Shown here piece after piece: positions 2,910 to 17,049 of a stretch of 20,000 nt of DNA (position 1 is the first letter of the stretch; every line of letters starts with the position of its first letter). Below the pieces are notes generated by a model. That model ran no database searches. It was given only the letters and a program-made list of their open reading frames with translations, and had not been told where the DNA came from. The stretch is from IMG/VR virus record IMGVR_UViG_3300031867_000012. One strand, 5' to 3'. A program made the translations under genes and the position numbers. This stretch comes from an uncultured virus (IMG/VR IMGVR_UViG_3300031867_000012). Lineage: Duplodnaviria > Heunggongvirae > Uroviricota > Caudoviricetes.

Positions 2910-2911
2910 TT

Positions 2912-3055
2912 TTAAATGTTATTTATTAATATTTTTGTTATTAAAAATGCTATCATTATGATAACTATAATAATTTTTATCCATTCTATTTTTGGATTAT
3001 CAGGAAAATTTACTATATTTCCCGTCTTTAAATCACGAACTGCTAAATTTCCCAT
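2912..3055 (-). CDS. small membrane protein, 47 aa
   Basis: Manual translation MGNLAVRDLKTGNIVNFPDNPKIEWIKIIIVIIMIAFLITKILINNI; fills the gap and has a C-terminal hydrophobic helix. Confidence 0.6.
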   Translation of the reverse strand: MGNLAVRDLKTGNIVNFPDNPKIEWIKIIIVIIMIAFLITKILINNI

Positions 3056-3263
3056 TGTCTATCTTTTTATCTATTTTTTCATTATATCTTATATCCCATT
3101 CAGAGAGATTTCTCCATTTATCTATAATAAGATAATTCTTGCACCACTCTTTGTAAGAAACTAACCATTTATGATTTTTCCCATCATTAAGTTCTACCTT
3201 ATTTATATTACAAGCAAAACTATAATTAAAATACTTGTCATTAATTAAATTCTTACAAATCAT
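3033..3263 (-). CDS. hypothetical protein
   Basis: 76-aa ORF directly downstream of promoter copy 2. Confidence 0.6.
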   Translation of the reverse strand: MICKNLINDKYFNYSFACNINKVELNDGKNHKWLVSYKEWCKNYLIIDKWRNLSEWDIRYNEKIDKKIDNGKFSSS

Positions 3264-3285
3264 AATTATATTATCTCTTATTTAA

Positions 3286-3324
3286 ATACATAAATAATAT
3301 AGTAAATCAAATAAAAAATTCAAT
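3286..3324 (-). promoter_or_regulatory. conserved phage promoter-like motif, copy 2
   Basis: Minus strand ATTGAATTTTTTATTTGATTTACTATATTATTTATGTAT. Confidence 0.75.
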
Positions 3325-3336
3325 TTATATTTAATA

Positions 3337-3364
3337 AAAATGGAGAACTTTTTATTGTTCTCCA
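3337..3364 (-). terminator. intrinsic terminator
   Basis: TGGAGAAC/GTTCTCCA stem followed by a U-run on the minus strand. Confidence 0.6.
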
Positions 3365-3903
3365 GATTTCATACTTTCTAATTTCTTTAATATAATTGGA
3401 ATCATTTTATCTACTGCATCTCTTGATTCCACTTCTATATATTCTAAATTATATTTATTATACGTTTCTTTTATAATTTTATCTAATTCTTTAGATTGTT
3501 TCAAATTATGTATTCTCCCATAATCCTCAAATTCAATATTTCCACGTTTAATAAAAAAATCTAAATTAACAAATTTCTTATATTCTGAAATTATTAATGT
3601 ATCAAATTCTGGATTTTCTCCTTGTTTATATATAATATTATTGATAAAAGATCCATCATGAACAATACAATCCACTTTTCCTAATTTATTTGAAATTGAA
3701 TAATGTTCCATACCAAAAATAGGTATTTGATTGATCGGCATTGTTTGATTTTCTTCATATATACGTTCTTTAATATATTCCGAAACTAATTCACAATGTA
3801 CTCCCATTTTCTTAAGTCTTGCAAACAATTCAGCCGCTACTGTGGATTTTCCACTACAGGGCCCACCAATTAAATTAATAACTAAAGTGCTATTATAATC
3901 CAT
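3352..3903 (-). CDS. P-loop NTPase / nucleotide kinase-like (NadR/AAA_28-like)
   Basis: Walker A GGPCSGKST, VSEY, Walker B-like CIVHDG, GRIH. Confidence 0.8.
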   Translation of the reverse strand: MDYNSTLVINLIGGPCSGKSTVAAELFARLKKMGVHCELVSEYIKERIYEENQTMPINQIPIFGMEHYSISNKLGKVDCIVHDGSFINNIIYKQGENPEFDTLIISEYKKFVNLDFFIKRGNIEFEDYGRIHNLKQSKELDKIIKETYNKYNLEYIEVESRDAVDKMIPIILKKLESMKSGEQ

Positions 3904-3926
3904 TTCATCTCTATATCATATTTTTA

Positions 3927-4283
3927 TTATTCATTAATATAATTAACTTTTACGAAAAACATATTTTTAATTTTTTCAAATGTATTAATAACTCTATTAT
4001 AATATCCTTGTGCAAAATTAGATCTAATACCCGGAAAATATTTAACAATTTCTTTCTTTACCTTCTGAGGAACAAACAAATCAAATGTCTTACTATTTAT
4101 TAAATCAAACATCTGATTCATATATACTTCTACAATATACTTAATCTCATCTTTACTATAATAACCATTCATTTTCTCATAAATCTTATTGTATTTAATA
4201 AGACCGTTTAATGATAAATCATAATCATGAGTTAATTGATTATATATCGATAAATTGAATATATTTAAAGTATTTTTACTCAT
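3927..4283 (-). CDS. hypothetical protein
   Basis: 118-aa ORF in the minus-strand gene run. Confidence 0.7.
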   Translation of the reverse strand: MSKNTLNIFNLSIYNQLTHDYDLSLNGLIKYNKIYEKMNGYYSKDEIKYIVEVYMNQMFDLINSKTFDLFVPQKVKKEIVKYFPGIRSNFAQGYYNRVINTFEKIKNMFFVKVNYINE

Positions 4284-4293
4284 ACAGAAATTA

Positions 4294-4395
4294 ACACAGG
4301 GACATTTATTTGTTAATAAGTATATAATTTTATTAATTATCTATAAAAATTAACCTGAGTGTCCCAGGCGACTTCCTGTGATAATCAGGTTAATT
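4294..4395 (-). ncRNA. putative structured (pseudoknotted) intergenic RNA
   Basis: 11-bp stem AATTAACCTGA/TCAGGTTAATT whose loop segments CACAG and GGACA are complementary to downstream TGTCCCTGTG. Confidence 0.45.
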
Positions 4396-4593
4396 ATTCT
4401 TACTGGTATATTCTGAAAATTTCTTTAAATGGTACTGAATAGGTTCATTTACATAAATTCTATCTTGAAATTCAGGACAATAATTATTTTGTGAAGCTTT
4501 ATTCAATTTCCACATCTTACCATCACATCCTTTATTGAATTTCTGACAAAAATTACAAATATCATTAGTTTGGTATTTGTTTAGATAATTCAT
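4390..4593 (-). CDS. small Cys-rich hypothetical protein
   Basis: 67 aa with CxxC...C...C. Confidence 0.65.
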   Translation of the reverse strand: MNYLNKYQTNDICNFCQKFNKGCDGKMWKLNKASQNNYCPEFQDRIYVNEPIQYHLKKFSEYTSKNN

Positions 4594-4639
4594 AAAAGTT
4601 AAAATATATTAATTTAATATAGAATTTTATAATAATAAA

Positions 4640-5269
4640 TTATAAATCTTCATATAATAAAGTAATATGATTCTTTTTTATTTCTGGGGCATCTAAACCT
4701 TGTTCAATACATAAATTCTCAAATTTTATTGTATTGAATGGGTGAGTAATAATATGTACACCTGATTTTGTTGGCAAACATATTACAATTACCTTTTCAA
4801 ATTTACTATCACAAGATTCAATGAATTCACAATATTTTTTTAATCTTTCATCATCAATATTCATTTCATCTACATCAAGAATCCATCTCTTCTCTTTACC
4901 ATCAAGACCGCCATTAACTGAGTCACAAAACCTCCATGGTTTCTTGAATTCTCCTGTGGCTACCATCTCAGCATATTTCAAAAGGGTCTTTTTTGAAAGT
5001 TCAATCTTTGATTTTGCATTTACACTAATATAAGCACGCAAACCAAATAGCTTACAACATGTCTTGATTTCATCAATATATCTATCAAATAACTCAATAG
5101 AATCTATATAATATTGTTTGAATGTATAGTTAGCTGCAGGAAGATTTGGATGGTCCTTGCCTCTACGTACTAAAGATACATCAAAATACAAATCTTTCCT
5201 ATACATTTGCTTGACAGGAATACCTAGATCAAGCATATATTGTCTCATTGTTAAAATATTATCTGTCAT
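4640..5269 (-). CDS. hypothetical protein with AEP/PrimPol-like motifs
   Basis: WILDVD (hhhDxD) and TKSGVH (sxH) resemble AEP motifs I and II. Confidence 0.6.
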   Translation of the reverse strand: MTDNILTMRQYMLDLGIPVKQMYRKDLYFDVSLVRRGKDHPNLPAANYTFKQYYIDSIELFDRYIDEIKTCCKLFGLRAYISVNAKSKIELSKKTLLKYAEMVATGEFKKPWRFCDSVNGGLDGKEKRWILDVDEMNIDDERLKKYCEFIESCDSKFEKVIVICLPTKSGVHIITHPFNTIKFENLCIEQGLDAPEIKKNHITLLYEDL

Positions 5270-5273
5270 ATAT

Positions 5274-5576
5274 TTAATAATTTAATATATTTTGTTTAAA
5301 CAATACAATATCAGAATTGCTTCTCCAAGCTTTAGTTAATTTCTTGGTAAAAGTAAGTTTATCTCCATTTTTTTGTTCCCATTTTTTCTTGTTACAATAA
5401 AGTCTACCATCCCAATATTCTACAAGAACTTCACAATGAAAATAATCACCACGTTGCCATGCATCTCTAAAATCCTTGACAACTGCTTTACGATATGATG
5501 CATCTGTCTTTGGTACTAAAACCAATATCTCATCACCAACTTCAATCTTATTACCTACATTATCAAAATATTCCAT
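5274..5576 (-). CDS. hypothetical protein (SH3/KOW-like start)
   Basis: 100 aa; D..G.KIEVGDEI pattern. Confidence 0.7.
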   Translation of the reverse strand: MEYFDNVGNKIEVGDEILVLVPKTDASYRKAVVKDFRDAWQRGDYFHCEVLVEYWDGRLYCNKKKWEQKNGDKLTFTKKLTKAWRSNSDIVLFKQNILNY

Positions 5577-5579
5577 AAT

Positions 5580-5831
5580 TTAATATTCTGTACTTAATTT
5601 AACATTATCATATTCTTTAATAAATTCATCTGCTGACATCCTATCCATATCCCAATCACCAGGATATAAATTACCATCTTCGTCTTCATAATCACCAAGA
5701 AAATGCCAATATTCAATTATATTAGAATAAGAACCCCATATTACATAGTTACCATATTCATCAACATATAATCTTTTATCAGGATTATTTACCAACCAGT
5801 TAAGAGCTTCTTTTGAATTATTAAATTTCAT
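5580..5831 (-). CDS. hypothetical acidic protein
   Basis: 83 aa; ATGA overlap with the upstream gene. Confidence 0.7.
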   Translation of the reverse strand: MKFNNSKEALNWLVNNPDKRLYVDEYGNYVIWGSYSNIIEYWHFLGDYEDEDGNLYPGDWDMDRMSADEFIKEYDNVKLSTEY

Positions 5832-6079
5832 TTTTTATTAACTTTAATCAAATAAACATTCTTCCAATTAATTTTATAAGACTTTTTAAGTTTAATCTCT
5901 TTATTTGATCTATAACCAATATCAGGGATTATTACTATCTTATCATCACCTTTCTTATCTTTATTGAACCCAACAACGTGCCCATAAATTCGACATTGAG
6001 AAGTCAAACATAATACAGTTGAACCTAATACCAATTCATGTCCAAGACTATCATAGTAATTTTCAAATAAAGTACTCAT
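5828..6079 (-). CDS. hypothetical protein
   Basis: 83 aa; directly downstream of promoter copy 3. Confidence 0.7.
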   Translation of the reverse strand: MSTLFENYYDSLGHELVLGSTVLCLTSQCRIYGHVVGFNKDKKGDDKIVIIPDIGYRSNKEIKLKKSYKINWKNVYLIKVNKK

Positions 6080-6091
6080 ATCTTTCTTAAT

Positions 6092-6130
6092 TTACATAAA
6101 TAATATAGTAAATCAAATTAAAAATTCAAT
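6092..6130 (-). promoter_or_regulatory. conserved phage promoter-like motif, copy 3
   Basis: Minus strand ATTGAATTTTTAATTTGATTTACTATATTATTTATGTAA. Confidence 0.75.
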
Positions 6131-6141
6131 TTATATATAAC

Positions 6142-6174
6142 AAAAAATCCACCTACTTTCACAAGCAAGTGGAT
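6142..6174 (-). terminator. intrinsic terminator after the RNA ligase gene
   Basis: Minus strand ATCCACTTGCTT-GTGA-AAGTAGGTGGAT-TTTTT. Confidence 0.8.
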
Positions 6175-6198
6175 CTATTATAAAATAACCCCTAATTT

Positions 6199-7047
6199 TT
6201 ATTTTTGATAATTCTCATTCTTAGGTTGATCAACCTTTTCATCAGTACCATAAACATTACGATACTTCTGAAAATCTTCATACTTAACCTTTACAATAAG
6301 TCGCTTACCCATACGATTACGAAGACCTAAATCAGTACGAAGAACAAGACCTTCAGCCATCTTTGCATTCGGATTCTCGGCAACCTTAGAACGGAAGCCC
6401 TTACGAACAAAATCAATTGCTTCATCAAGAGTAAAGTAACCAATCAATGGTACAATAGGTGCCCCAAGCTTAGTTGCAATCTCATCACGAGCAGAAGTCA
6501 AAAGATAAATGTCATTTACTTTAACATCAAATACAATAAACTCATTTCCATCTTTGATATACCAACTACCAGACTGGATTCCTGCTCCATAACCTTCACC
6601 ATAAATAGTATAAATATTAGGTATAACATCATAATTAGGTGTTACCCCATCTTCCATAACCCACTTATGATCAACAAACTCTTCTACAGGAATAAACTCT
6701 TTAAGACCAAGTGATGCAAGTACTTTTTCATTTGGGTACTTCTCTTGCATATGCTTAAGCAAATTCTTTGGAATCTGGGCATTATCTGTCTTTCCAGCAA
6801 TACGTACATTAAACTGTACACCAATAAGTTTTACTTCAGGATTATCCTCATAAATTGGCTGCTTAGTAACCTCAATACGGATATTTGTTCCGTCCACTTT
6901 TTCTTCCCCGCGCCACTTCAAACCACGAAGATAGTTGAACTCAGGCTCAACAAATGGCTCATAAGGCATAATGACATTCTTTGCATCACGCATGAAGATA
7001 GTGTTAATCTTCTGATAAGTGTTCTCGCTTCTTTTCTGTTTTCCCAT
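6199..7047 (-). CDS. ATP-dependent RNA ligase (Rnl2-like nucleotidyltransferase)
   Basis: Motif I EKVDGTN, III IYGEGYG, IIIa FIVFDV, IV EGLVLR, V VKVKYEDF; no OB domain. Confidence 0.85.
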   Translation of the reverse strand: MGKQKRSENTYQKINTIFMRDAKNVIMPYEPFVEPEFNYLRGLKWRGEEKVDGTNIRIEVTKQPIYEDNPEVKLIGVQFNVRIAGKTDNAQIPKNLLKHMQEKYPNEKVLASLGLKEFIPVEEFVDHKWVMEDGVTPNYDVIPNIYTIYGEGYGAGIQSGSWYIKDGNEFIVFDVKVNDIYLLTSARDEIATKLGAPIVPLIGYFTLDEAIDFVRKGFRSKVAENPNAKMAEGLVLRTDLGLRNRMGKRLIVKVKYEDFQKYRNVYGTDEKVDQPKNENYQK

Positions 7048-7125
7048 AATTTTTAATTTTTTAATGTTTTTACTACTAATTTGTTTTCGATCCTATATAG
7101 CTCAGTAGCAGAACATTATTTATTG

Positions 7126-7365
7126 TTAATAACTTTCACACATTTCAGTATAACATTCAATAGAATAAATAGAAGGCCAAAATCCTTGATATTTTCTATA
7201 CCACTTTGCATACAAGAAACAATGTGCCATATCACCTTCATAAAGGATTTTTGTAGTACTATCAAAAACTACATATTTACCTGACTTAGATTCCAACTGA
7301 AGTTCAAAATCATCTTCTATCAAAGTTTCAAAAAACTTATCTGAATTATTTGAAGGATTAAACAT
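7126..7365 (-). CDS. hypothetical protein
   Basis: 79 aa, downstream of promoter copy 4. Confidence 0.7.
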   Translation of the reverse strand: MFNPSNNSDKFFETLIEDDFELQLESKSGKYVVFDSTTKILYEGDMAHCFLYAKWYRKYQGFWPSIYSIECYTEMCESY

Positions 7366-7381
7366 ATTATTTATTTATTAG

Positions 7382-7420
7382 TTACATAAATAATATAGAC
7401 ATATTTTTAAAAAATTCAAT
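7382..7420 (-). promoter_or_regulatory. conserved phage promoter-like motif, copy 4
   Basis: Minus strand ATTGAATTTTTTAAAAATATGTCTATATTATTTATGTAA. Confidence 0.75.
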
Positions 7421-7903
7421 TCAAGTTGGATAAATTTGTGCTGATTGTTTCCAAGTTAACTTATCATAGAAGAAAAGTATTCTCTTAGTTGGTGCATTTT
7501 CAAAAGCTGATACTTTGGCAAATCCTAAATGTTTCATTGCAAAATATTCTTCTTGGAAAGTACCTTGTGGTTTATGATCATAGAATGAGGCAGGCACTTT
7601 CAAATATTCATCAAGATATTCCTTCAATACAATTTGCCTGATAATTCCTTCGTGCTCACATTGGTTGCAGGAATAAACTTTTCCATCTATATCTATATAT
7701 CCAACCCATGGAAACTTTTCACTTAATTCATTTTGATTAGGAATATCAAAGAAATTATTAAATTTATATGCTAGTTCATTATATTTCCTTTCCCATTCAT
7801 CTGCTTTATCTTGATAATAAGGTAAATAATCACTATCATCATAAGGTACATTAAAATGCAACTCATGTTGATGATTAAGCAGTCTTTCTAATTTTGTAAT
7901 CAT
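7421..7903 (-). CDS. hypothetical protein
   Basis: 160 aa; ATGA overlap with the upstream gene. Confidence 0.75.
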   Translation of the reverse strand: MITKLERLLNHQHELHFNVPYDDSDYLPYYQDKADEWERKYNELAYKFNNFFDIPNQNELSEKFPWVGYIDIDGKVYSCNQCEHEGIIRQIVLKEYLDEYLKVPASFYDHKPQGTFQEEYFAMKHLGFAKVSAFENAPTKRILFFYDKLTWKQSAQIYPT

Positions 7904-8238
7904 AACTCAAAACTTTCGATAATTTCACATTTACATTTATTGCCATAATTAACTTCATGCCAATCTTTGATATACTTTTTCATTTCATCTAAAGTATGTG
8001 TTGTATGTTGGATTCTTTCTCCTTCATAACCATATTCATGTCCTACTTTATGCCAGAATCCAAATATACGACCTTTACGTTTTACTTCATACCATTCACT
8101 TTGTTCAATTGAAGTAGATTCTGGTACATATTGTCTACTAATTGGAAATTTACCTGAAGGTATAACCTTTAAGGATTTAGAATATTTTTTAATTATTTTA
8201 TATTTCATAATCTTTATCTTCAAAAAATATTTCTTCAA
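7900..8238 (-). CDS. hypothetical protein (start may be the internal ATG at 8208)
   Basis: ORF track; the MKYKII start would reduce overlap with the upstream gene. Confidence 0.7.
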   Translation of the reverse strand: MKKYFLKIKIMKYKIIKKYSKSLKVIPSGKFPISRQYVPESTSIEQSEWYEVKRKGRIFGFWHKVGHEYGYEGERIQHTTHTLDEMKKYIKDWHEVNYGNKCKCEIIESFEL

Positions 8239-8515
8239 TTATTATTATGCCTTTACAATTTTGAAGTGTTTCTTCATCTTCCCATGCTTTTATATTAAAT
8301 ATAATTTGACTATTATCTATTGTTCTTATCAAATTTTCTGGGATGATATTAAGTGATGGGTCTTGAAGATTACACCATTTTGTTATATCTTCAAGAATTA
8401 TTTCCATTCTTTCTTGACCTTTATCTTTTGAGTGATAATAGAAAGGGCCCCATGTAAGCATTGTCTCATTTGGGTAAATTATATTTCCTTCTACTTTATA
8501 GTTTCTTTTATTCAT
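8198..8515 (-). CDS. hypothetical protein
   Basis: 105 aa in a tight operon. Confidence 0.7.
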   Translation of the reverse strand: MNKRNYKVEGNIIYPNETMLTWGPFYYHSKDKGQERMEIILEDITKWCNLQDPSLNIIPENLIRTIDNSQIIFNIKAWEDEETLQNCKGIIIIEEIFFEDKDYEI

Positions 8516-8525
8516 ATAATTATCT

Positions 8526-8798
8526 TTATGATTGAATATAATTAATTAATTTATTATAATTATCTAACCATTCTTGAGATTCTTGATAAGATTTAAGTAT
8601 ATCATTAAATTCTGGATCTGTCTCGTCTAATATCCACTCCTTTTTATAAATACTACTTAATGAAAAATGAGAACCTTTCATATGGTTTTCAGTTTCATCT
8701 TGAATATTATCAATTTCTTCAGCACTAGTACCTATATATTCTTGAGTAATATCCGAATAATATGGATCAATTGCAATGTATTTTATAATTCTTTTCAT
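8526..8798 (-). CDS. hypothetical protein
   Basis: 90 aa; ATGA overlap. Confidence 0.7.
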   Translation of the reverse strand: MKRIIKYIAIDPYYSDITQEYIGTSAEEIDNIQDETENHMKGSHFSLSSIYKKEWILDETDPEFNDILKSYQESQEWLDNYNKLINYIQS

Positions 8799-9250
8799 AT
8801 CTCTTCTACTTTTAATCTAACTGTCATTCGATGCCTATCACCTTTTTTATGTATAACTATTTCTTCAAGAGTTTTATTGTCAAATGAAGTAAAATCTTCA
8901 TTAAAGAATCTATAATTATCTATAACATATGGGAAACACATATTATATAATTTAATATTATGTTGTATACATCCTATTCTTAATGATCCATCATCTTCCC
9001 ATGTAATTACACCAAAATAATCTATACAATTCTCGTCATAATTCTTATCTTTAAATTTATCTTTTAAAAGAACATCTTCTTCTATAATAGTTAATTTACA
9101 ATTAATAACATTTTCTGGTTTCTCCCCATATATATTAGCATGTTTTTTAGATATCCCAAATGCCCTATAATAAACTTCACCTGTTTTTGATAACCGTTTT
9201 GCACATGTTGTTATTAATGTTGTTCCTATTCTATAATTATCAATCTTCAT
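8795..9250 (-). CDS. hypothetical protein
   Basis: 151 aa in a tight operon. Confidence 0.75.
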   Translation of the reverse strand: MKIDNYRIGTTLITTCAKRLSKTGEVYYRAFGISKKHANIYGEKPENVINCKLTIIEEDVLLKDKFKDKNYDENCIDYFGVITWEDDGSLRIGCIQHNIKLYNMCFPYVIDNYRFFNEDFTSFDNKTLEEIVIHKKGDRHRMTVRLKVEEI

Positions 9251-9836
9251 ACCTATAATGGAAATCTTGTTTTAAATTATTATATTTATGTAATTCTTCC
9301 GATTTATTTGGGAGTTCTTGACATTTTTTAATCCATTCATTTCTTAATGTAAAATTTAATCCTAGACAATTAAATATATATAACCCATTAAGTATTTTAA
9401 TTGCATAAATAGTTTCTGATTCTCCAATACCGTGTTCATAATTAGTTTGAACAAAATGATATAATTGTTCATCTAACATATCGGCATCATCATCTATTAT
9501 AACATAGTTTTCTACTTCAGGGTGTTCATTTAGCCATGTTTGTATTTCACCACCTCTACCAGTTCCATAATATTTTTTATCTGAAAACCAAGGAGTTACA
9601 TCATAAAGATTATCAACAAACCATTGTAATATTTTATTTTTTGAACATTTTTTATTTTCATCTAATATAAACTCTTTTGTGTGTTCAACAGTATTACAAC
9701 GCCAAGATGATGAAACAACAATCTTAGCTCCTGTTTCATCTACAATTTTTTTAACCCATTTTAATTTCTTTAGATTAATATACCACTTTGGTGGAATTGT
9801 TATAACTCCATCAAAATCAAGAAATATTACTTTCAT
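9240..9836 (-). CDS. HAD-family phosphatase (Swiss-Army-Knife RNA-repair-like HAD domain)
   Basis: IFLDFDGV, IVVSSSWR, RGGEIQTWL, YVIIDD motifs. Confidence 0.85.
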   Translation of the reverse strand: MKVIFLDFDGVITIPPKWYINLKKLKWVKKIVDETGAKIVVSSSWRCNTVEHTKEFILDENKKCSKNKILQWFVDNLYDVTPWFSDKKYYGTGRGGEIQTWLNEHPEVENYVIIDDDADMLDEQLYHFVQTNYEHGIGESETIYAIKILNGLYIFNCLGLNFTLRNEWIKKCQELPNKSEELHKYNNLKQDFHYRYED

Positions 9837-12855: not shown

Positions 12856-13203
12856 TTATATTTCTTCAACTTTGAAAAATTTAATCCAATCAATATTTCC
12901 ACACCCATAAGGAGTAAAACGAAGGAAGAATTCTTTAACTAAATTCACATCTTCAACTTTGTAACCAAAATTTTCATCCATTTGTTTGCAAAGTTTCCAT
13001 GTATCAAGAACATAATGATTACCATCCCATTTATCGGGAAGTCTATCAAACCAATTCCAAGGTTTATTACCAGAATTCTTATTAATCATTTCAGCAAGAT
13101 TTGAAAACTTAGTAAGGTCATTCAATGTAATATCATTTGTAATTATAGGAGATCCACCTTCCCAATTACTTGTCTTAATTTGGATTTGAAATTTTGTATT
13201 CAT
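12856..13203 (-). CDS. hypothetical protein
   Basis: 115 aa; first gene after promoter copy 5. Confidence 0.75.
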   Translation of the reverse strand: MNTKFQIQIKTSNWEGGSPIITNDITLNDLTKFSNLAEMINKNSGNKPWNWFDRLPDKWDGNHYVLDTWKLCKQMDENFGYKVEDVNLVKEFFLRFTPYGCGNIDWIKFFKVEEI

Positions 13204-13215
13204 ATTATCTAATTT

Positions 13216-13254
13216 TTACATTATAAATATAGTATATTATATAAAAAATTCAAT
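13216..13254 (-). promoter_or_regulatory. conserved phage promoter-like motif, copy 5
   Basis: Minus strand ATTGAATTTTTTATATAATATACTATATTTATAATGTAA. Confidence 0.7.
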
Positions 13255-13265
13255 ATTTTATAAAC

Positions 13266-13303
13266 AAAAAATGAGACTTCTAAAATAAATTAGAAATCTC
13301 ATT
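13266..13303 (-). terminator. intrinsic terminator after the tRNA cluster
   Basis: Minus strand AATGAGATTTCTAA...TTAGAAGTCTCATT followed by a U-run. Confidence 0.7.
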
Positions 13304-13306
13304 ATG

Positions 13307-13381
13307 AGCGGGCAACGGGATTCCAACCCGCCTTATTTCACATTGGAAGTGTGATGCCATAAGCAACTAGGCGATGCCCGC
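13307..13381 (-). tRNA. tRNA-Gly(TCC)
   Basis: Acceptor GCGGGCA/TGCCCGC, anticodon arm TCACA-CT TCC AA-TGTGA, U73; T-loop variant TTGGAAT; no encoded CCA. Confidence 0.85.
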
Positions 13382-13406
13382 ATTTACTGATACAACAAAA
13401 TTAAAG

Positions 13407-13485
13407 TGGATGCAATAGGATTCGAACCTATGTTTATTTCTTTTATAAAAAAAGACTATACCCAAAGTATACCTTACACGCATCC
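13407..13485 (-). tRNA. atypical tRNA-like gene, apparent anticodon TTA
   Basis: Acceptor GGATGCG/TGCATCC, canonical T arm ATAGG-TTCGAAT-CCTAT, anticodon arm TCTTT-TT TTA TA-AAAGA; abnormal D region. Confidence 0.5.
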
Positions 13486-13534
13486 ATTAAAAAATAAAAC
13501 TAAAGAATATTTATAAACAGCTAAATTTATAATA

Positions 13535-13609
13535 AAACATTTCAAGTGTTTCGCGTATACCATTTCGCCATTCGGGGAACATCCCCAAATCTGGAATCGA
13601 ACCAGAATA
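13535..13609 (-). tRNA. circularly permuted tRNA, anticodon TGA (Ser)
   Basis: The 3' half (TCTGG-TTCGATT-CCAGA-TTTGGGG-A, 13606-13582) precedes the 5' half (CCCCGAA-TG-GCG AAATGGTATA CGC-G-AAACA-CT TGA AA-TGTTT, 13577-13535), with a 4-nt TGTT linker. Confidence 0.8.
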
Positions 13610-13682
13610 TCGATGAAACTGTTTATATGACTATTAGTTTTTTACCATTTGATAATTTTATATTATCAATAAAATTATTTAG

Positions 13683-13822
13683 TGGCCGAGGCTGGACTTG
13701 AACCAACAATCTTTAATTTCCAAATAATTAACGTGTTTACCTTCGAAGTACCTCTACATCATGACTACGTTTTAACGAGGAAGTAGACGAGAGCTAATTT
13801 CTTTTAATTTCACTACTCGGCC
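13683..13822 (-). tRNA. tRNA with a ~64-nt D-loop insertion (anticodon ambiguous, TTG or TGG)
   Basis: Acceptor GGCCGAG/CTCGGCC, D stem GTG/CAC with GGTAAA, T arm GTTGG-TTCAAGT-CCAGC, anticodon arm TTAAT-TATTTGGAA-ATTAA; insertion at about 13742-13805. Confidence 0.7.
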
Positions 13823-13830
13823 AAATTTAA

Positions 13831-14271
13831 TTACTTAATATTTTCTTTTTCAAAAATATACTTAATAACTGAATCCCAATTTGGGAATTTATTTGAATGA
13901 ATCTGAATATGTTCTCCAGTAAAATTACCAGCTCCATTCTTTATAGAATCATCAATCAAATAATCACCAATATTAAGATCTTTATGGTGGCTAAAAATAA
14001 CATTCTTATATGCATTAGGCAAATATCTCTTAACCCATACAAGTTTTTCCATCAAAGCATTAGGATTACTCCAAGGAGAAGTTGAAAGAATATAAACATC
14101 AAAATATTTCTCCAATTCATTATAAGATTCAATAGCACCTTCCATAGGTTTCAAATCTCTAAAAAATCCAATAATGTGTTTTGCATCTTTTGGGTCAACA
14201 TTAAGTTCTTTAGCAGCACCCAAATAATCGGACATTGTATTGTCCAAATCAATATAAATTATTTTCTTCAT
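13831..14271 (-). CDS. 5'(3')-deoxyribonucleotidase (NT5C-like HAD)
   Basis: IYIDLDNT, FFRDLKPMEGA, ILSTSPW, EKLVWV, K.L..GDYLIDD. Confidence 0.85.
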   Translation of the reverse strand: MKKIIYIDLDNTMSDYLGAAKELNVDPKDAKHIIGFFRDLKPMEGAIESYNELEKYFDVYILSTSPWSNPNALMEKLVWVKRYLPNAYKNVIFSHHKDLNIGDYLIDDSIKNGAGNFTGEHIQIHSNKFPNWDSVIKYIFEKENIK

Positions 14272-14308
14272 ACAAATATAATATAGTAAATTGAATTAAA
14301 AATTCAAT
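14270..14308 (-). promoter_or_regulatory. conserved phage promoter-like motif, copy 6 (abuts the ATG)
   Basis: Minus strand ATTGAATTTTTAATTCAATTTACTATATTATATTTGTAT(G). Confidence 0.7.
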
Positions 14309-14324
14309 TGTACAGATGTAAATT

Positions 14325-14361
14325 TTACATTTACAATAGACATTATCTATAAAAATTCAAT
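14325..14361 (-). promoter_or_regulatory. variant promoter-like copy 7
   Basis: Minus strand ATTGAATTTTTATAGATAATGTCTATTGTAAATGTAA. Confidence 0.5.
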
Positions 14362-14380
14362 AATAAATAAAAATAATTTA

Positions 14381-15478
14381 TTATTTAATAAATTCTAAAA
14401 ATTTATCTATTTTTTCTTTCATTTTTAAAGAACCTTGTTTAGAATTAATTTCATTCCAATCGATTCTATAAACTTCAATTCCATTTTCTTTTATATATTG
14501 ATCTCTTATAATATCCTTTTCTTTACGATCTTTATATTTATGTTGTTTACCATCAATTTCAAGATCAATTTTTCTATTATTAATTTCAATATAAAAATCT
14601 AAAAAATATCTTTCACCTTTACCTAAATTACCATATTCAAATACTTTTTCTCTAATATAAGGTATATTATTATTATCTAAAACTTGTTTCCAAAATTTTT
14701 CAGCATAACTTGTAATATTTCTGGATTTCCATCCTTGAAATCTACCTTCTTTAATTACTTTATTTATAGATTCTTTTGATTTTATTGATATAAGTTTTTT
14801 ATGACATTCATCACAACAAGTAGTACCTCCACCAACTTTACCAGATTTAATTATTCTTGCATAAAATTCTTTATTACAAATAGCACAATTATGTTTATGC
14901 AAATGAATAATATTAATTAATTCATCTTTATAATCATAATTATCTAAATTTAAAATTTTACCAGCATTAATTAATTCAGAAATTAATTTATAATTTTTTT
15001 TATTAAAATAATTTAATTTTTCTTCTTCTGATAAATATTTAGATTTAGATATATATTGTTCTTTATTTTTTCCTGTATATTGGTTATGTGGAATATATGT
15101 ACCATTTTTTAAAGATTTATATATTCCTTGTGAAATTTTTTCTTTTGTTTCTTGAGAATGTACTCTTGAATGAGCACATTTACTTGAGCAACATTTAGGA
15201 TATAAACCTTTATTAAATTGATTATCCGTTAAATCCAATATATATTCTTTTCCACATTTTTTACAAATCAATTTTCTAAGTTTTTTAGATTTTTCATCAA
15301 TTTTATTTAATTGTTTAGATTTATCAATACGATTTTTTGTAGCTCTTTCTGAAGCTAATTTTTGTATTGATTTATCTCTTTCTTCATTATAATTTGGATT
15401 TAATTTACAATGACTCATATGACCCATTAATCCAAATTGATTATTAAATTCCTTTCCACAATATTTACAACAACACAT
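14381..15478 (-). CDS. putative free-standing homing endonuclease (Zn fingers + NUMOD3-like + Vsr/DUF559-like nuclease)
   Basis: N-terminal CxxC/H motifs, HSQETKEKIS NUMOD3-like motif, C-terminal YFLDFYI...LEIDGKQH...D..RD...G..VYRI.W. Confidence 0.75.
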   Translation of the reverse strand: MCCCKYCGKEFNNQFGLMGHMSHCKLNPNYNEERDKSIQKLASERATKNRIDKSKQLNKIDEKSKKLRKLICKKCGKEYILDLTDNQFNKGLYPKCCSSKCAHSRVHSQETKEKISQGIYKSLKNGTYIPHNQYTGKNKEQYISKSKYLSEEEKLNYFNKKNYKLISELINAGKILNLDNYDYKDELINIIHLHKHNCAICNKEFYARIIKSGKVGGGTTCCDECHKKLISIKSKESINKVIKEGRFQGWKSRNITSYAEKFWKQVLDNNNIPYIREKVFEYGNLGKGERYFLDFYIEINNRKIDLEIDGKQHKYKDRKEKDIIRDQYIKENGIEVYRIDWNEINSKQGSLKMKEKIDKFLEFIK

Positions 15479-15554
15479 ATTAATATTATTATCTTTATTT
15501 AAAAATAAACATTTTGTGTAGGAATAGATAAATTTGAACCAACAAAAATTTACG

Positions 15555-15627
15555 TCGGGGTAACCGTACTCGAAACGATTCCACTTGGTCCCAAACCAAG
15601 TATGCTACCATTAAACACCATACCCCG
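15555..15627 (-). tRNA. tRNA-Pro(TGG)
   Basis: CGGGGTA/TACCCCG acceptor; CTTGG-TT TGG GA-CCAAG; A73. Confidence 0.9.
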
Positions 15628-15630
15628 AGT

Positions 15631-15726
15631 TATTTCAAAGAAAATGTTAATACTAAAAATCTTAAATGTTAAAAAATCCTTATTTATCAAAATTATCGAA
15701 GTAAGTATTAACTGACTATTGAAATA
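15631..15726 (-). ncRNA. third copy of the conserved tRNA-associated structured element
   Basis: TATTTCA-ATAGTCA-GTTAATACT-TACTTCGA-(41 nt)-AGTATTAAC-ATTTTCTT-TGAAATA. Confidence 0.65.
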
Positions 15727-15730
15727 TATT

Positions 15731-15769
15731 TATAATTTAATATAGTATATAATAATAAAATTATTCAAT
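15731..15769 (-). promoter_or_regulatory. degenerate promoter-like copy 8
   Basis: Minus strand ATTGAATAATTTTATTATTATATACTATATTAAATTATA; spacer 2 nt longer than the other copies. Confidence 0.45.
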
Positions 15770-15791
15770 ATTAATATTATATTAAATTTTG

Positions 15792-15872
15792 TACCCCGCA
15801 TGGGACTCGAACCCACACCTCCGAAGAGCTAGATCCTTAATCTAGTGCGTATACCCATTCCGCCAACGGGGT
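15792..15872 (-). tRNA. tRNA-Leu(AAG)
   Basis: ACCCCGT/GCGGGGT acceptor, CTAGA-TT AAG GA-TCTAG, variable arm CTC-TTCG-GAG, A73. Confidence 0.9.
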
Positions 15873-15877
15873 GTAAT

Positions 15878-16060
15878 ATCTCTTAATTCTAACCAATTGA
15901 ATAATGCTTGTGCACCGGCACTAATCAATGTTTATGGTCCTACTTAAATTGAATAATGTTGCCAGCACATGGTCATTATCCTAATTTGTTTCAGCTTGAT
16001 GAGATCCTTGGTTTAATTGGTAACGATAACTTCCAATCATCAAGTCATTGAATAAGAGAT
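15878..16060 (-). ncRNA. unidentified ~183-nt structured RNA
   Basis: Terminal stem ATCTCTTA/TAAGAGAT; internal stems CTTGATGA/TCATCAAG and TGTGCTGGCA/TGCCGGTGCA; no ORF in the track. Confidence 0.55.
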
Positions 16061-16171
16061 CAATTTGCATAGTTATTTTTGTTTTACTAAGTGACGTACG
16101 ATCTTAATAAAATCTAAATGTAACACTACATTTACGGATCAAACTATTGCATAAACTACGTATCGTATTTG

Positions 16172-16244
16172 TGGGGCCACCCAGATTCGAACTGGGGTGA
16201 TGACCTTGTAAGGGTCACATACTCAACCACTATATGATGTCCCC
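16172..16244 (-). tRNA. tRNA-Val(TAC)
   Basis: GGGGACA/TGGCCCC acceptor (one mismatch), TGACC-CT TAC AA-GGTCA, canonical T arm. Confidence 0.85.
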
Positions 16245-16255
16245 AAATAATTATG

Positions 16256-16336
16256 TGCCCCATGTGGGACTCGAACCCACACCCAATTAAGGATAGCTTC
16301 TAAGGCTACTGACTATACCAGTTCGTCTAACGGGGC
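16256..16336 (-). tRNA. tRNA-Leu(TAG)
   Basis: GCCCCGT/ATGGGGC acceptor, GTAGC-CT TAG AA-GCTAT, variable arm, A73. Confidence 0.9.
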
Positions 16337-16342
16337 AAATTG

Positions 16343-16411
16343 TCAGGGATGATTGAGTTAAACAACCGTCTCATAGTAAAATCCATGGCTCTATCGTTGA
16401 GCTAATCCCTG
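16343..16411 (-). tRNA. degenerate tRNA-like gene (anticodon undetermined)
   Basis: All four stems pair (CAGGGAT/ATCCCTG, GCTC/GAGC, CATGG/CTATG, GGTTG/CAATC), but the D-loop lacks GG, the T-loop is TTTAACT and the anticodon loop has 6 nt. Confidence 0.55.
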
Positions 16412-16581
16412 AATACACATGGCTCTTTCGGAGTTTTTGGGCTTCTAATCCTTCAAGTTGCTCCTCAAACTAAAGGTATCACAGACCATGTACTTATGAT
16501 ACGAGACTTACGATTCTCCCTAAACCCGTAGCCTTAGGCTCTTTCGATTTGTAAACATGTATACCTATTTACAACTATAGG

Positions 16582-16670
16582 CGGAGAGCAGAGGAATCGA
16601 ACCTCATCCGGTTATTAGCCGAACGCATTGCTTAGCAGGCAACCGCTATCACCGTCAAGCGTTACTCTCC
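16582..16670 (-). tRNA. tRNA-Ser(GCT)
   Basis: GGAGAGT/GCTCTCC acceptor, GTTGC-CT GCT AA-GCAAT, long variable arm, G73. Confidence 0.88.
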
Positions 16671-16674
16671 AAAT

Positions 16675-17049
16675 TTATGATAAATTACTAAACCATTTGC
16701 ATATATCATTAAAAGCATCATTAACAGAAGAATAATAAACAATAATATCATCTAATTTAAAATAATAAAATGTTTCTCCAGCACCTTGATTACTTTCTTC
16801 TATTTCAGCAGTATCAAAAATTTCTTTAGGTATGATTTTTTTATAATAATCTAATTCATCTGTATCATCAGACATAACACAAAAATGGAATTTATGATCA
16901 TTTTTAATATTTTCAAATTCTCCATATTGTCTTCCGAATTTTTGATATAATTTTTTAGCTAATTCATTAATTTCTTCTTTACTAAAACCTATTTTAGTAT
17001 TCTTATTTATGGTAAGTTTTTCATTTATAAAACAATTTAATTCTTTCAT
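16675..17049 (-). CDS. hypothetical protein with capsid-targeting-like N-terminus
   Basis: 124 aa beginning MKELNCFINE. Confidence 0.75.
   Translation of the reverse strand: MKELNCFINEKLTINKNTKIGFSKEEINELAKKLYQKFGRQYGEFENIKNDHKFHFCVMSDDTDELDYYKKIIPKEIFDTAEIEESNQGAGETFYYFKLDDIIVYYSSVNDAFNDICKWFSNLS

Follow-up and report, generated by a model that had tools for sequence, protein, structure and literature searches.

A tRNA-shaped RNA of a giant rumen phage, probably a rearranged relative of the Y RNAs that partner Ro60

The focal RNA gene is 140 nt long, lies on the minus strand (13683-13822) of the 20,000-nt stretch of giant cattle-gut (rumen) phage DNA analysed here (the window), and encodes a cloverleaf with an insert in the D loop. 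The RNA probably represents a novel rearrangement of those Y RNAs that mimic tRNA and act as partners of the Ro60 protein. Its fold is conserved in related phages, its insert is a module shared with other RNAs of this phage group, among them RNAs with the architecture of the Y RNA YrlA, and in relatives module-bearing RNAs are encoded close to the gene for a Ro60 homologue. The specific reading that we favour, with modest confidence, is that of a circularly permuted, tRNA-shaped Y-RNA relative.

Structure and conservation of the focal RNA

The RNA has the features of an elongator-type body (cloverleaf, 7-bp acceptor, discriminator base, T and D arms), and its variable loop is AGAUU (Table 1). 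Acceptor, D stem and T arm are intact, as the first-pass annotation claimed, and every item that it listed was found where it had been placed. The structured element that it described just before the GG of the D loop is a helix conserved across 18 relatives, and the enlarged anticodon loop is also real: 9 nt in the window, or 7 nt (AUUUGGA) if an optional sixth U:A pair extends the anticodon stem.

A blastn search with 13250-13900 against 50,697 phage records gave zero matches, and synteny via two flanking proteins reached no orthologues of the focal RNA; these were reached by DNA search inside related records. A full-length orthologue with 80% identity was identified in a 410-kb IMG/VR phage record. 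The 474-kb contig L192 carries a near-identical copy of the focal RNA.

Covariation was assessed in an alignment of 18 distinct members, comprising the cloverleaf and the insert helix. Pairing is kept in 97.5% of 486 cells, with changes on both sides at 16 of 27 pairs; none of 500 shuffles matched the observed pairing, and slid controls were 35-47% paired. Covariation is present in the acceptor, D, anticodon and inner stems, and every variable helix, including that of the insert, is compensated on both sides. The acceptor forms 7/7 pairs in all 18 members, using 9 different stem sequences. Also kept are the positions of tRNA tertiary contacts (U8, A14, A15:U48, G18G19 and the T loop); no variation is seen at A14, A15, U48, G18 or the T-loop UUCAA, and 16 of the 18 rows have G19 (the other two are shifted by one column). 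Since the insert occupies the variable D-loop position 16/17 and the tertiary contacts are retained, the L-shape can form with the insert in place.

This conservation bears on the idea that the gene is a tRNA pseudogene, broken by a mobile or repeat element and decaying, which we consider highly improbable. Standard tRNA finders do miss the RNA, and at 13407-13486 the window has a positional homologue without the module that its counterpart in the related genome G001 carries, from which we conclude that modules are gained or lost. However, the compensatory changes in every variable helix, insert included, bring this idea close to refutation, the internal-loop strand B3 and the block B4 are invariant across 18 diverged copies, and the stems differ from copy to copy, so there is no repeat family with fixed ends. 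A mobile element with fixed inverted ends and an integron-like site were rejected on the same ground.

ARAGORN does not call the focal RNA, nor does Rfam at the gathering score; at E<=10 the only Rfam match on it is a partial tRNA match of 13.2 bits. Among the intact family sequences ARAGORN calls a tRNA in 1/18, and after in-silico deletion of the insert columns in 16-18 of 18.

The 12 closest members have near-identical bodies with invariant stems and 10 versions of the anticodon-position loop, of 7 nt (five members), 8 nt (three) or 9 nt (four), and the column entropy of the loop (0.75 bits) lies near that of the unconstrained cap region (0.90) as against 0 in the stems. Position 33 is not U in several family members (e.g., UAUGGAA), and strain variants occur at 13720-13723 in RNA-library contigs. 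The 'anticodons' read by ARAGORN after in-silico removal of the insert are ttg, gga, gg, tgg, agg, tg, gag, atg, gtg and catg, with 2 or 4 bases in 5/18. Thus, the combination that marks a decoder (7-nt loop, U33 and an anticodon conserved among orthologues) is lacking from the focal family, and from the drift of the loop the RNA is probably no decoder. Judged from the sequences, the variability looks like a lost decoding constraint and not like a tuned frameshift device.

A working tRNA that keeps its extra arm and decodes through an expanded loop, either as a frameshift or quadruplet reader or as a nuclease-resistant substitute, is therefore very unlikely. The intact cloverleaf and tertiary-pair positions, the open acceptor with A73 and the recurrence of 8- and 9-nt loops across the family would suit such a tRNA, and phage tRNAs are known to escape anticodon nucleases via loop changes, but length and sequence of the loop shift between near-identical genes and U33 is missing in several. 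The proposal in the first-pass annotation that the large loop promotes frameshifting is unsupported, given a loop about as variable as the cap, and nothing was found in support of its proposal of anticodon-nuclease evasion.

Table 1. Coordinates of the features discussed, with 5' strands of the minus-strand RNAs at the higher positions
Feature	Position	Strand	Basis or remark
RNA ligase gene	6199..7047	minus	PF09414, E 7e-13; RNA-repair context
HAD phosphatase of 'Swiss Army Knife' RNA-repair proteins	9240..9836	minus	PF18143, E 1.3e-22
Neighbour YrlA-like Y RNA ('permuted tRNA')	13496..13641	minus	Fold and 5-sequence alignment
Neighbour RNA, outer stem; inner stem	13641-13634 / 13503-13496; 13626-13619 / 13520-13513	minus	
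Neighbour RNA, blocks UAGUCAU; UUCAUCGA	13633-13627; 13617-13610	minus	
Neighbour RNA, tRNA-like part: T arm; closed acceptor-like hairpin; D arm	13606-13590; 13589-13571; 13569-13552	minus	
Neighbour RNA, extra hairpin, loop CUUGAAA	13551-13535	minus	
Focal tRNA-shaped RNA	13683..13822	minus	Open 7-bp acceptor stem, A73, no encoded CCA
Acceptor 5' strand GGCCGAG	13822-13816	minus	Pairs with 13684-13690
D-stem 5' strand GUG, preceded by UA	13813-13811	minus	Read from sequence
Insert, about 65 nt, 3' end ...UACUUCGAA	Abuts G18G19 (13741-13740)	minus	Read from sequence
B1, A-rich block AAAUUAAAAGAAAUUAG	13794..13810	minus	Mean column entropy 0.32 bits
H5', inner-stem strand CUCUCGUC	13786..13793	minus	Pairs with 13752-13760, one bulged U
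B2, internal-loop strand UACUUCCU	13778..13785	minus	Family consensus ANNNUUCU
Cap, minimised outer stem CGU-UAAA-ACG	13768..13777	minus	Fold; stem for the window row read by eye
B3, internal-loop strand UAGUCAU	13761..13767	minus	Nearly invariant, entropy 0.12
H3', inner-stem strand GAUG-U-AGAG	13752..13760	minus	Covariation alignment
B4, UACUUCGA	13743..13750	minus	Invariant, entropy 0.00 in 18 sequences; abuts A-G18-G19
D-stem 3' strand CAC	13735-13733	minus	Read from sequence
Anticodon stem UUAAU/AUUAA	13731-27 / 13717-13	minus	Read from sequence
Anticodon-position loop UAUUUGGAA, 9 nt	13726-13718	minus	Hypervariable across the family
T arm GUUGG-UUCAAGU-CCAGC	13707-13691	minus	100% of cells paired; loop nearly invariant
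Acceptor 3' strand CUCGGCC; A73	13690-13684; 13683	minus	Read from sequence
Third module, small unit without tRNA-like domain	15631..15726	minus	Pairings by eye; just 5' of tRNA-Pro
Third module, outer stem; UAGUCAG; inner stem; UACUUCGA	15726-15719/15638-15631; 15718-15712; 15711-15705/15653-15647; 15703-15696	minus	

A module shared with YrlA-like RNAs

A tRNA nested inside a tRNA was rejected as a description, since the insert contains no tRNA and the halves run 3' before 5'. The insert is a fixed module: an inner stem, an asymmetric internal loop, an outer stem with a short cap loop, and then UACUUCGA. The internal loop is conserved (UAGUCAW opposite ANNNUUCU), UACUUCGA(A)G(G) is invariant across the focal family, and the first 4 nt of B1 double as D-loop positions 13-16. 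In the inner stem, 98.4% of cells are paired and 4/7 counted pairs changed on both sides. For a pairing of B1 with B4 that would extend this stem, the columns are invariant in the focal family and, by eye, uncompensated in permuted relatives.

Both open and hairpin-type modules were identified. All 16 open modules examined for it have an outer stem of 5-10 bp in one register, its 5' strand ending at UAGUCAW and its 3' strand beginning 8-9 nt past the inner stem, and the B2 block follows H5' in all of the open modules too. The hairpin-type modules (n=21) have 10 distinct short cap stems of 2-5 bp, with GAAA, GCAA or GUGA four-base loops in 12/21. Inner and outer stems differ in every module copy. 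In a shuffled-stem partner search, shuffles equalled the observed length in 0-14 of 50 cases for inner stems and 2-63 of 200 for outer stems; this statistic is weak because the DNA is AT-rich, and we rely on the fixed register and the covariation alignments.

The motif pair occurs twice in the window (0.03 expected; none of 200 shuffles reach two), and a relaxed scan found a third module. Six occurrences were counted in G001 and five each in G005 and G006, which are near-identical copies of one phage, all on the strand of the tRNA genes; G002, G003 and the reversed-pattern controls have none. When the collection was scanned with the bare motif, most matches were due to chance (among 81 listed matches examined, 9 had a nearby T-loop-like motif and 6 were judged real), and subsequent patterns were made more specific. 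Module copies number up to 6 per genome and are dispersed in tRNA clusters. A reading of the motif pair as promoter or terminator was rejected, since the variable parts covary with their partner strands and thus both belong to RNA. Rfam gave no match at E<=10 to small ribozymes (hammerhead, twister, pistol, hatchet, HDV-like), and a hammerhead-like reading of GUC/CUGAUGA was rejected by eye, as the required blocks are not conserved.

In the window and in related phage records of 110-410 kb, a further set of RNAs is closed by the module, which there encloses a T arm, a closed acceptor-like hairpin and a D arm in that order; in the same phage group the module also closes the ends of small hairpin RNAs. 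The immediate neighbour of the focal RNA is of the former type. In a 5-sequence alignment of such RNAs, 93.3% of cells are paired, 22/33 pairs changed on both sides, and 0/500 shuffles are as good. The order of arms is the one described for YrlA by Chen et al. (2014; PMC4201824). One of these RNAs (L146:247-372) matches the whole YrlA model of Rfam (RF02553) with 42.1 bits (E 2e-8 in 221 nt, 1.9e-6 in 20.5 kb); this is the sole YrlA match and is below the Rfam gathering score of 69. In this alignment the inner stem falls on the second stem of YrlA and UAC of UACUUCGA on the YUAY block, UAGUCAA occupies the GNCGAA position, and CGA of UACUUCGA lies beyond the second stem. The resemblance of CGA(A) in UACUUCGA to the 'CGAA motif' may, on these sequences, be a coincidence. 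Neither 13200-16800 nor 13490-13840 of the window matches RF02553 at E<=10; given its permuted topology, the focal RNA cannot align to this model.

Like YrlA (PMC4201824), the RNAs of these phages combine a tRNA-like domain, in which the T and D arms, an acceptor-like stem and tertiary pairs such as 15:48 are kept, with a long, bulged stem whose unpaired nucleotides are conserved, and they have a Ro60/TROVE gene as a same-strand neighbour (here in relatives); the neighbour RNA in the window shows the YrlA architecture. The differences are several. The long stem of YrlA is built from the 5' and 3' ends, as in the neighbour RNA, whereas the focal RNA ends at its acceptor stem and has the Ro-type stem as an internal D-loop hairpin, a permutation absent from the descriptions in the portions of that paper covered. 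The focal RNA also keeps an arm at the anticodon position. Instead of the conserved GNCGAA(N0-1)G (CGAA) motif that YrlA has near the 5' strand of its stem, the conserved loop sequences are UAGUCAW, ANNNUUCU and UACUUCGA. The sequences of both the T and the D arm are unlike the nearly invariant ones that this source gives for YrlA, and there are up to 6 copies per genome in tRNA clusters, with the module also flanking true tRNAs (tRNA-Gln in G001). The placement beside ordinary tRNAs is left unexplained by a pure Ro60-docking role.

Linkage to genes for Ro60 homologues

The Ro60 homologue of G001 scores 26.2 bits against Pfam TROVE (cut-off 23), and that of G005 scores 29.8 bits against VWA_2 and 25.6 bits against vWA_Ro60. 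A profile of the family matches only Ro60 proteins among PDB sequences (9L5Y/9KOP, 4e-16; 1YVP, 1.2e-8; 2NVO, 0.016). An AlphaFold model of the homologue from a 7-row alignment was unusable (mean pLDDT 47.7). The best PDB match is the protein of Thermus phage phiLo, in which a Ro60 homologue, with the Y-like Yrl1 and Yrl2 adjoining its gene, is reported to form a complex with host PNPase (PMC12135203). These Yrl RNAs differ from ours in being described as simple stem-bulge-stem structures, found via a CGAA motif, and the sections covered make no mention of a tRNA-shaped form or a D-loop insertion.

Genes for the Ro60 homologue were identified in all four distinct motif-bearing phage records searched (G001, G005, G007 and G008). 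In three of these, module RNAs share the strand of the Ro60 (TROVE plus vWA) gene and lie about 35-570 nt from it. In G005 the gene has a YrlA-like RNA on its upstream side, ending about 35 nt away, and a focal-type RNA downstream, beginning after 42 nt; G007 has the same arrangement around the gene, with the focal-type RNA about 335 nt downstream; in G008 the YrlA match lies 572 nt upstream. In G001 the gene is about 11 kb from the orthologue of the focal RNA. Lacking is a Ro60 gene in the 20-kb window, which extends 6 kb to one side and 13 kb to the other (best tblastn E 0.68). For comparison, PMC4201824 places nearly all Y RNAs within 4 kb of a Ro60/TROVE gene on the same strand, and lists 22 phages with members.

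We surveyed 80 Ro60-homologue loci. The motif is present on the gene strand at 4/5 loci with at least 58% identity, a count that includes the near-identical records G005 and G006, and at 0/75 loci with 31% identity or less; it was never found on the strand opposite the gene. At one close locus (L213, 65% identity) the module is absent within 2.5 kb, and G003 has a Ro60-like gene and no motif.

These patterns can be weighed against a role of the module as a general processing or stability element (a site for a double-stranded RNase, polycistronic punctuation, or another protein's site), for which nearness to Ro60 genes would reflect mere clustering of RNA genes. We consider this unlikely. Modules are found throughout tRNA clusters and flank ordinary tRNAs, those of the window and G001 are at least 11 kb from any Ro60 gene, and the focal RNA begins, in punctuation-like fashion, 8 nt past the stop of the upstream nucleotidase gene. 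However, the loop sequences are strictly conserved on both strands, which indicates a sequence-specific partner, and the motif is confined to one Ro60 subfamily; modules directly flank the Ro60 gene in G005, G007 and the L212 record, and one module-closed RNA scores as YrlA.

Fate of the insert and a permuted design

In assembled contigs from four metatranscriptome runs the insert is never bypassed by a joint, and one contig crosses it in unspliced form; as evidence against splicing this is weak, because contigs drop rare forms. In RNA-library contigs the region including the insert is deeper than its flanks, although contig depth is not taken as a measure of level. An apparent joint (13636->13679) was rejected as splicing and is a strain indel in the spacer. 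A group I tRNA intron has a catalytic core (P3-P9), usually exceeds 200 nt and lies in the anticodon loop; the insert, at about 65 nt in the D loop and with no match to RF00028, was rejected as one; the same model detects a group I intron at another place in G001.

Introns of the bulge-helix-bulge type are marked by a pair of 3-nt bulges, separated by 4 bp, where exon and intron meet, and by eye no such motif was seen at the borders of the insert. In archaea and red and green algae, tRNA genes may be split, circularly permuted or interrupted by non-canonical introns (including in the D loop), with bulge-helix-bulge signals. By analogy, the focal gene might encode a real tRNA from which an intervening sequence is removed, the module being a shared, bulge-helix-bulge-like splice or processing signal; an unknown nuclease would cut and the phage RNA ligase would seal, or a two-piece tRNA would be left. 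This reading, to which the first-pass annotation pointed, is in our view as unlikely as a general processing element.

Several observations fit excision. One structured signal is found inside tRNA bodies, where it may sit in the D loop or the anticodon stem, between the leader and the trailer in permuted tRNA-like genes, and flanking ordinary tRNAs, mirroring the logic of archaeal and algal intron-bearing, permuted and split genes. Genes for an RNA ligase, an RNA-repair-type HAD phosphatase and a P-loop kinase lie in the window. Removal of the insert gives tRNAs that ARAGORN can call, and some permuted units (in G005 and G001) have a 7-bp acceptor followed by CC(A). At L132 it is the anticodon stem that is interrupted by the module, in its 5' strand, and removal of the module restores a perfect 5-bp stem; this arrangement fits excision and a three-way junction equally.

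However, the products would have loops of 6, 7, 8 and 9 nt and at least 8 'anticodons' on near-identical bodies, unlike selected decoders. Several permuted units (L146, G007) have closed acceptor hairpins of 5 bp, from which no 7-bp acceptor with a free 3' end can arise; there are also 'empty' modules with no tRNA inside, and both architecture and gene linkage match Y RNAs. The signal is conserved in sequence and lacks the 3-4-3 bulge-helix-bulge form, and the contigs contain no spliced form. Our literature search, in the portions of the sources it covered, turned up no bacteriophage tRNA gene that is permuted or has a D-loop intron, and a bacterial host is evident here from the C1:A72 mismatch (by eye) of an initiator-type tRNA in G001 and an NAD-dependent DNA ligase. 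Thus, with the module recurring as the closing stem of YrlA-like and small hairpin RNAs, the D-loop insertion finds no support as an intron. Bacteria provide precedents for grafted stem-loops and circular permutation in the intervening sequences of 23S rRNA, which RNase III excises without ligation, and in two-piece (permuted) tmRNA; these are different RNAs and have no module in common.

Under the Y-RNA reading that we favour, the focal RNA would be a stable non-coding RNA and no interrupted decoder tRNA. Its tRNA-shaped scaffold (open acceptor, D stem, T arm and elbow contacts) would display the Y-RNA stem module from D-loop position 16/17. The insert presumably stays in the mature RNA, and the loop at the anticodon position would have no decoding role. 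By analogy with Y RNAs, the module would dock a Ro60 homologue of the phage, and the tRNA-like body may recruit or mimic a partner of tRNAs: RNase P, the enzyme that adds CCA, modification or repair enzymes, or PNPase, the latter as found in known particles of Ro60 and Y RNA. The outer stem of the focal RNA is closed by a short loop and the RNA ends at the acceptor stem; in the neighbour RNA the module is built from the 5' and 3' ends and the acceptor-like stem is closed. Since the end positions are swapped between module and acceptor, the two RNAs would be circular permutations of one design.

A bifunctional adaptor, in effect a Ro60-armed decoy, seems quite unlikely. Its acceptor end would be handled as that of a tRNA (with CCA and perhaps an amino acid), and its D-loop module would carry Ro60. 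Host factors or tRNA-cutting defence nucleases would treat the matured end as a tRNA, and the module would bring the phage Ro60, and via it PNPase or phage RNA-repair enzymes, to those sites. The fast-changing loop at the anticodon position could then reflect an arms race with host anticodon nucleases, and the docking stem would be a cassette, transferable to any tRNA in cis and in several topologies.

Y RNAs that mimic tRNAs are already known, and the question touched here is the purpose of their tRNA-like part. In these very large rumen phages the presumed Ro60-docking stem appears movable among four arrangements: it closes a YrlA-like RNA, it closes small hairpin RNAs, it brackets ordinary tRNAs, or it is grafted into the D loop or anticodon stem of an RNA that has the whole tRNA shape and free ends. 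Were the intron reading true, these phages would provide the first case, as far as the portions of the literature covered extend, of tRNA splicing of the protein type or of a permuted tRNA system in a bacteriophage. For annotation, tRNA finders miss such genes, and phage tRNAs described as 'permuted' or 'intron-bearing' may be Y-RNA relatives. In these natural permutations the module and the tRNA elbow stay together, and the position of the ends and the anticodon loop may vary; the role of the tRNA-like part thereby becomes testable by a few binding and processing assays.

Genomic setting of the RNA genes

The window is phage-like and AT-rich (G+C about 22-35%), and its minus strand carries nearly all genes, including those for an NAD-dependent DNA ligase, a 5'-nucleotidase, a GNAT acetyltransferase and two RimK-type ATP-grasp proteins. 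Six tRNAs were identified by ARAGORN, all on the minus strand. Sequencing runs that contain window DNA are mostly bovine-gut metagenomes, and the relatives identified via flanking proteins and DNA search are IMG/VR records of 110-435 kb. The RNase H-like, kinase, ligase and phosphatase genes form an RNA heal-and-seal set that lies close to the cluster of RNA genes and is reminiscent of rsr-yrl-rtc operons. Insertions into tRNA bodies seem common in this phage lineage.

Coordinates of RNA and protein features in the window and in related phage records (G001, G007)
Feature	Location (strand)	Description
Focal tRNA-shaped RNA	window 13683-13822 (-)	acceptor stem 7 bp (GGCCGAG/CUCGGCC) plus A73; D stem 3 bp (GUG/CAC); insert about 65 nt, between D-loop position 16 and G18G19; anticodon stem 5 bp with 9-nt loop UAUUUGGAA, or 6 bp with 7-nt loop; variable loop 5 nt, then normal T arm
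Permuted unit	window 13496-13641 (-)	146 nt; T arm, closed 7-bp acceptor-like hairpin, D arm, hairpin; two-stem module around all
Module-only small RNA	window 15631-15726 (-)	directly upstream of tRNA-Pro; UAGUCAG / CAUUUUCU loop; outer and inner stem; interior about 41 nt
Weak tRNA-like gene	window 13407-13486 (-)	Rfam tRNA 27.6 bits (below cut-off); acceptor 7 bp, T arm good, D region odd; positional homologue of G001's second focal-type RNA, aligning as if a 51-nt module were lost and UACUU left
AU hairpin	window 13649-13669 (-)	8 bp, UUGAUAAU...AUUAUCAA; spacer between focal RNA and next module; also in G001, ahead of the orthologous permuted unit
tRNA with shortened anticodon loop	window 16343-16411 (-)	tRNA match 36.8 bits, missed by ARAGORN; matching place in G001 (L019:6565-6635) holds an ARAGORN '???' tRNA with two-base anticodon
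RNA-repair-type genes	window 2436-9836 (-)	RNase H-like (PF04308), AAA_28 P-loop kinase, RNA ligase (PF09414), HAD_SAK_2 phosphatase ('Swiss Army Knife' RNA-repair type), all inside 8 kb
Homing-endonuclease-like gene	window 14381-15478 (-)	between both tRNA groups; N-terminus zinc-finger-like, C-terminus DUF559/HNH-type
Long tRNAs	G001 L020:8520-8604, L020:9035-9125, L019:603-683, L019:1118-1198	80-91 nt, yet Met, Glu, Trp, Pro, not Leu/Ser/Tyr
Group I intron match	G001 L019:4720-4948	in tRNA cluster; 46.6 bits, slightly below gathering score of 50
G+C-rich region	G001 L020:9240-9900	about 650 nt between tRNA genes; no ORF noticed; weak RAGATH-33 match; may be a large structured RNA
tRNA match	G007 L211:4182-4349	168-nt Rfam match directly after Ro60 gene

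A tRNA-shaped RNA with a module in its D loop

The first-pass annotation had described a tRNA with intact arms, a D-loop insertion and an enlarged anticodon loop. The minus-strand sequence bears this out for the acceptor, D stem, insert, loop and T arm, and tRNA finders do not call the gene. The RNA is real and selection acts on it. An orthologue in G001, a 410-kb record, is 80% identical, with compensatory changes. A pattern scan of metagenome contigs returned 26 matches and 20 unique sequences, of which 18 have the focal architecture (L190 and L196 were excluded because their layout differs). Across the cloverleaf and insert helix of these 18 sequences, 97.5% of 486 cells are paired and 16 of 27 pairs are changed on both sides; none of 500 shuffles matched this pairing, and slid controls were 35-47% paired. 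All 12 unpaired cells fall in two rows (L144 and L193), where ten result from a one-column shift of the 5' strands of the D and anticodon stems and two from an A:A mismatch in the inner stem. With pairing kept at this level, decay of the RNA is extremely improbable. What this establishes is a conserved tRNA-shaped RNA whose D loop holds a two-stem module that is conserved as well.

The excluded L190/L196 contigs have three module motifs inside 250 nt, one of them ahead of the 3' part of a tRNA, running from the D arm to the 3' end, with the 5' acceptor strand not found nearby. They may represent yet another topology or else a split gene.

The anticodon-position loop is variable. Among the 12 closest family members there are 10 loop versions on identical stems, with lengths of 7 nt (five members), 8 nt (three) and 9 nt (four), and its entropy (0.75 bits) is near that of the cap region (0.90). 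With the module removed in silico, the ARAGORN assignments are Gln, Ser, Pro, Leu and His; in 5 of 18 sequences the 'anticodon' is undefined and has 2 or 4 bases. Contigs of related strains from RNA libraries depart from the window exactly at 13720-13723. The simplest reading is that decoding constraint is absent, although diversifying selection, indistinguishable here from such an absence, may act on the loop. An intact cloverleaf would fit a tRNA that decodes and bears an additional arm; given such a loop, we consider this reading very unlikely. Orthologous module-flanked tRNAs of G001 (L019:1-56) and the related record G007 (L206, minus strand, about 3545-3475) share body and trailer stem and have anticodon loops CUGCUAA and CUAUUAA, respectively; therefore, anticodon change on a constant body extends beyond the focal family.

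Four bovine-gut metatranscriptome runs, from three studies, yielded contigs across the region, and in all four the bin 13684-13804 has the top depth among bins 13200-14900 (these are contigs, and DNA carry-over is possible). The insert had been read as a possible intron. No insert-skipping joint occurs in the contigs of the four runs, which are uninformative on ends and strand and could miss a rare spliced form; one contig covers 13742-13905 unspliced. Excision or cleavage of the module is, in our view, unlikely. Related-strain contigs lack about 40 nt that include the 13649-13669 hairpin (joints 13636->13678/13679 and 13642->13680).

Anatomy and distribution of the module

Comparison of all copies identifies the insert as a fixed module. 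From 5' to 3' it opens with an A-rich block AAAUAAAAGAAAUUAG, whose initial bases double as D-loop positions 13-16. The inner-stem strand H5' comes next, then a loop strand of 8 nt, ANNNUUCU, and a short outer stem with a small closing loop (CGU-UAAA-ACG in the window, from folding and by eye). After these follow the loop strand UAGUCAW, the H3' strand of the inner stem with a single bulged U, and one free base before an invariant UACUUCGA that continues into A-G18-G19. Sequence hardly varies in the loop strands (entropy 0.12 bits) or in UACUUCGA (0.00 bits), and the stems vary between copies and covary. Ten different cap stems occur among the 21 hairpin-type modules, and in 12 of the 21 the cap is a four-base loop (GAAA, GCAA or GUGA); in three rows of this comparison the script took a wrong TTC as its anchor.

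Two copies of the motif pair UAGUCAW-N(8-11)-UWCWUCGA lie in the window (0.03 expected), and a relaxed scan adds a third module copy. In related records the tRNA-gene strand holds every copy of the pair: six in G001 and five each in G005 and G006, the latter being nearly identical to G005. The pair is absent from the records G002 and G003, and reversed-pattern controls gave zero. Other copies are open, with UAGUCAW-H3'-UACUUCGA on the unit's 5' side and H5'-ANNNUUCU on its 3' side. Bases before UAGUCAW pair with bases 8-9 nt past H5' to form an outer stem of 5-10 bp in 16 of 16 open units (two hairpin-type rows were left out, and the shuffle control is weak due to the AT-rich DNA). The contents of open modules differ: a T arm, closed acceptor-like hairpin and D arm with or without another hairpin (the permuted unit), about 40 nt without tRNA features (the small RNA), or a complete ordinary tRNA, such as tRNA-Gln of G001. 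Thus, the same module closes YrlA-like and small RNAs and brackets tRNAs. The small RNA may be the counterpart of YrlB, the small second Y RNA of Salmonella.

YrlA-like units and the Ro60 gene

The permuted unit resembles a tRNA in circularly permuted order, and its layout agrees with the architecture of YrlA, a tRNA-mimicking bacterial Y RNA. As described in PMC4201824, YrlA has a T arm, a closed 'acceptor' stem-loop, a D arm and a long stem of the RNA ends around these, and units of the permuted type share this order. The paper reports YrlA in 254 bacteria and 22 phages, with genes that adjoin those for Ro60 and share their strand, almost all of them at most 4 kb away, and cutting by RNase P and attachment of CCA only for the form whose acceptor-like stem has 7 bp. 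In five orthologues of the permuted unit, 93.3% of cells are paired and 22 of 33 pairs are changed on both sides (0 of 500 shuffles equally good). The last hairpin has a conserved loop, CUUGAAA in the window, CUUGUAA in three relatives and UUUGUAA in one. Acceptor-like hairpins run from 7 bp followed by CC(A) in G005 to 5 bp in G007, where the 6-nt loop includes two terminal mismatches; in L146, a permuted unit of another layout, the hairpin has 5 bp and a 3-nt closing loop. This module-closed RNA (L146:247-372, from a 113-kb relative) matches the whole Rfam YrlA model RF02553 at 42.1 bits, below the gathering score of 69 (E 1.9e-6 in 20.5 kb, 2e-8 in 221 nt); its inner stem aligns with the second stem of YrlA, its outer stem with the terminal stem and its UAC with the YUAY block. 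The window's own RNAs gave no match to RF02553 at E<=10. We found no description of the D-loop module arrangement in the accessible literature on phage permuted or intron tRNAs or YrlA; subscription journals and supplements could contain one.

A homologue of Ro60, the protein partner of YrlA, was identified in four of four distinct motif-bearing phage records searched (G001, G005, G007 and G008). The 565-aa protein of G001 matches TROVE at 26.2 bits (cut-off 23), and that of G005 has VWA_2 and Ro60-type vWA domains. PDB matches of the family profile are Ro60 proteins only (Thermus phage Ro60, 4e-16; Xenopus Ro60, 1.2e-8; Deinococcus Rsr, 0.016), and in 89 phage records tblastn identified relatives at full length that carry the annotation 'RNA-binding protein'. 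The Ro60 gene of G005 has a YrlA-like RNA upstream, whose end is about 35 nt away, and a focal-type RNA that begins 42 nt downstream. The order in G007 is tRNA, module-flanked tRNA, YrlA-like RNA, small module RNA, Ro60 gene and, about 335 nt downstream, focal-type RNA; the YrlA match of G008 lies 572 nt upstream of the gene. Among 80 Ro60-homologue loci, the gene-strand motif is present in four of five with at least 58% identity (two of the four being the near-identical G005 and G006) and in none of 75 with at most 31%; none of the 80 has it on the opposite strand. YrlA-like and module RNAs, the focal type included, are thus linked to a Ro60 gene in related phages.

Counting against a Ro60/Y-RNA reading, no module lies within 2.5 kb of the L213 locus (65% identity), the motif is missing from G003 despite its Ro60-like gene, and a Ro60 gene was not found in the window. 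We regard a processing element independent of Ro60 as improbable beside the linkage in the related phages. Taking the evidence jointly, we lean towards the module being a putative Ro60 docking site that is kept in the mature RNA, which would make the RNA a circularly permuted relative of Y RNAs and not a decoder.
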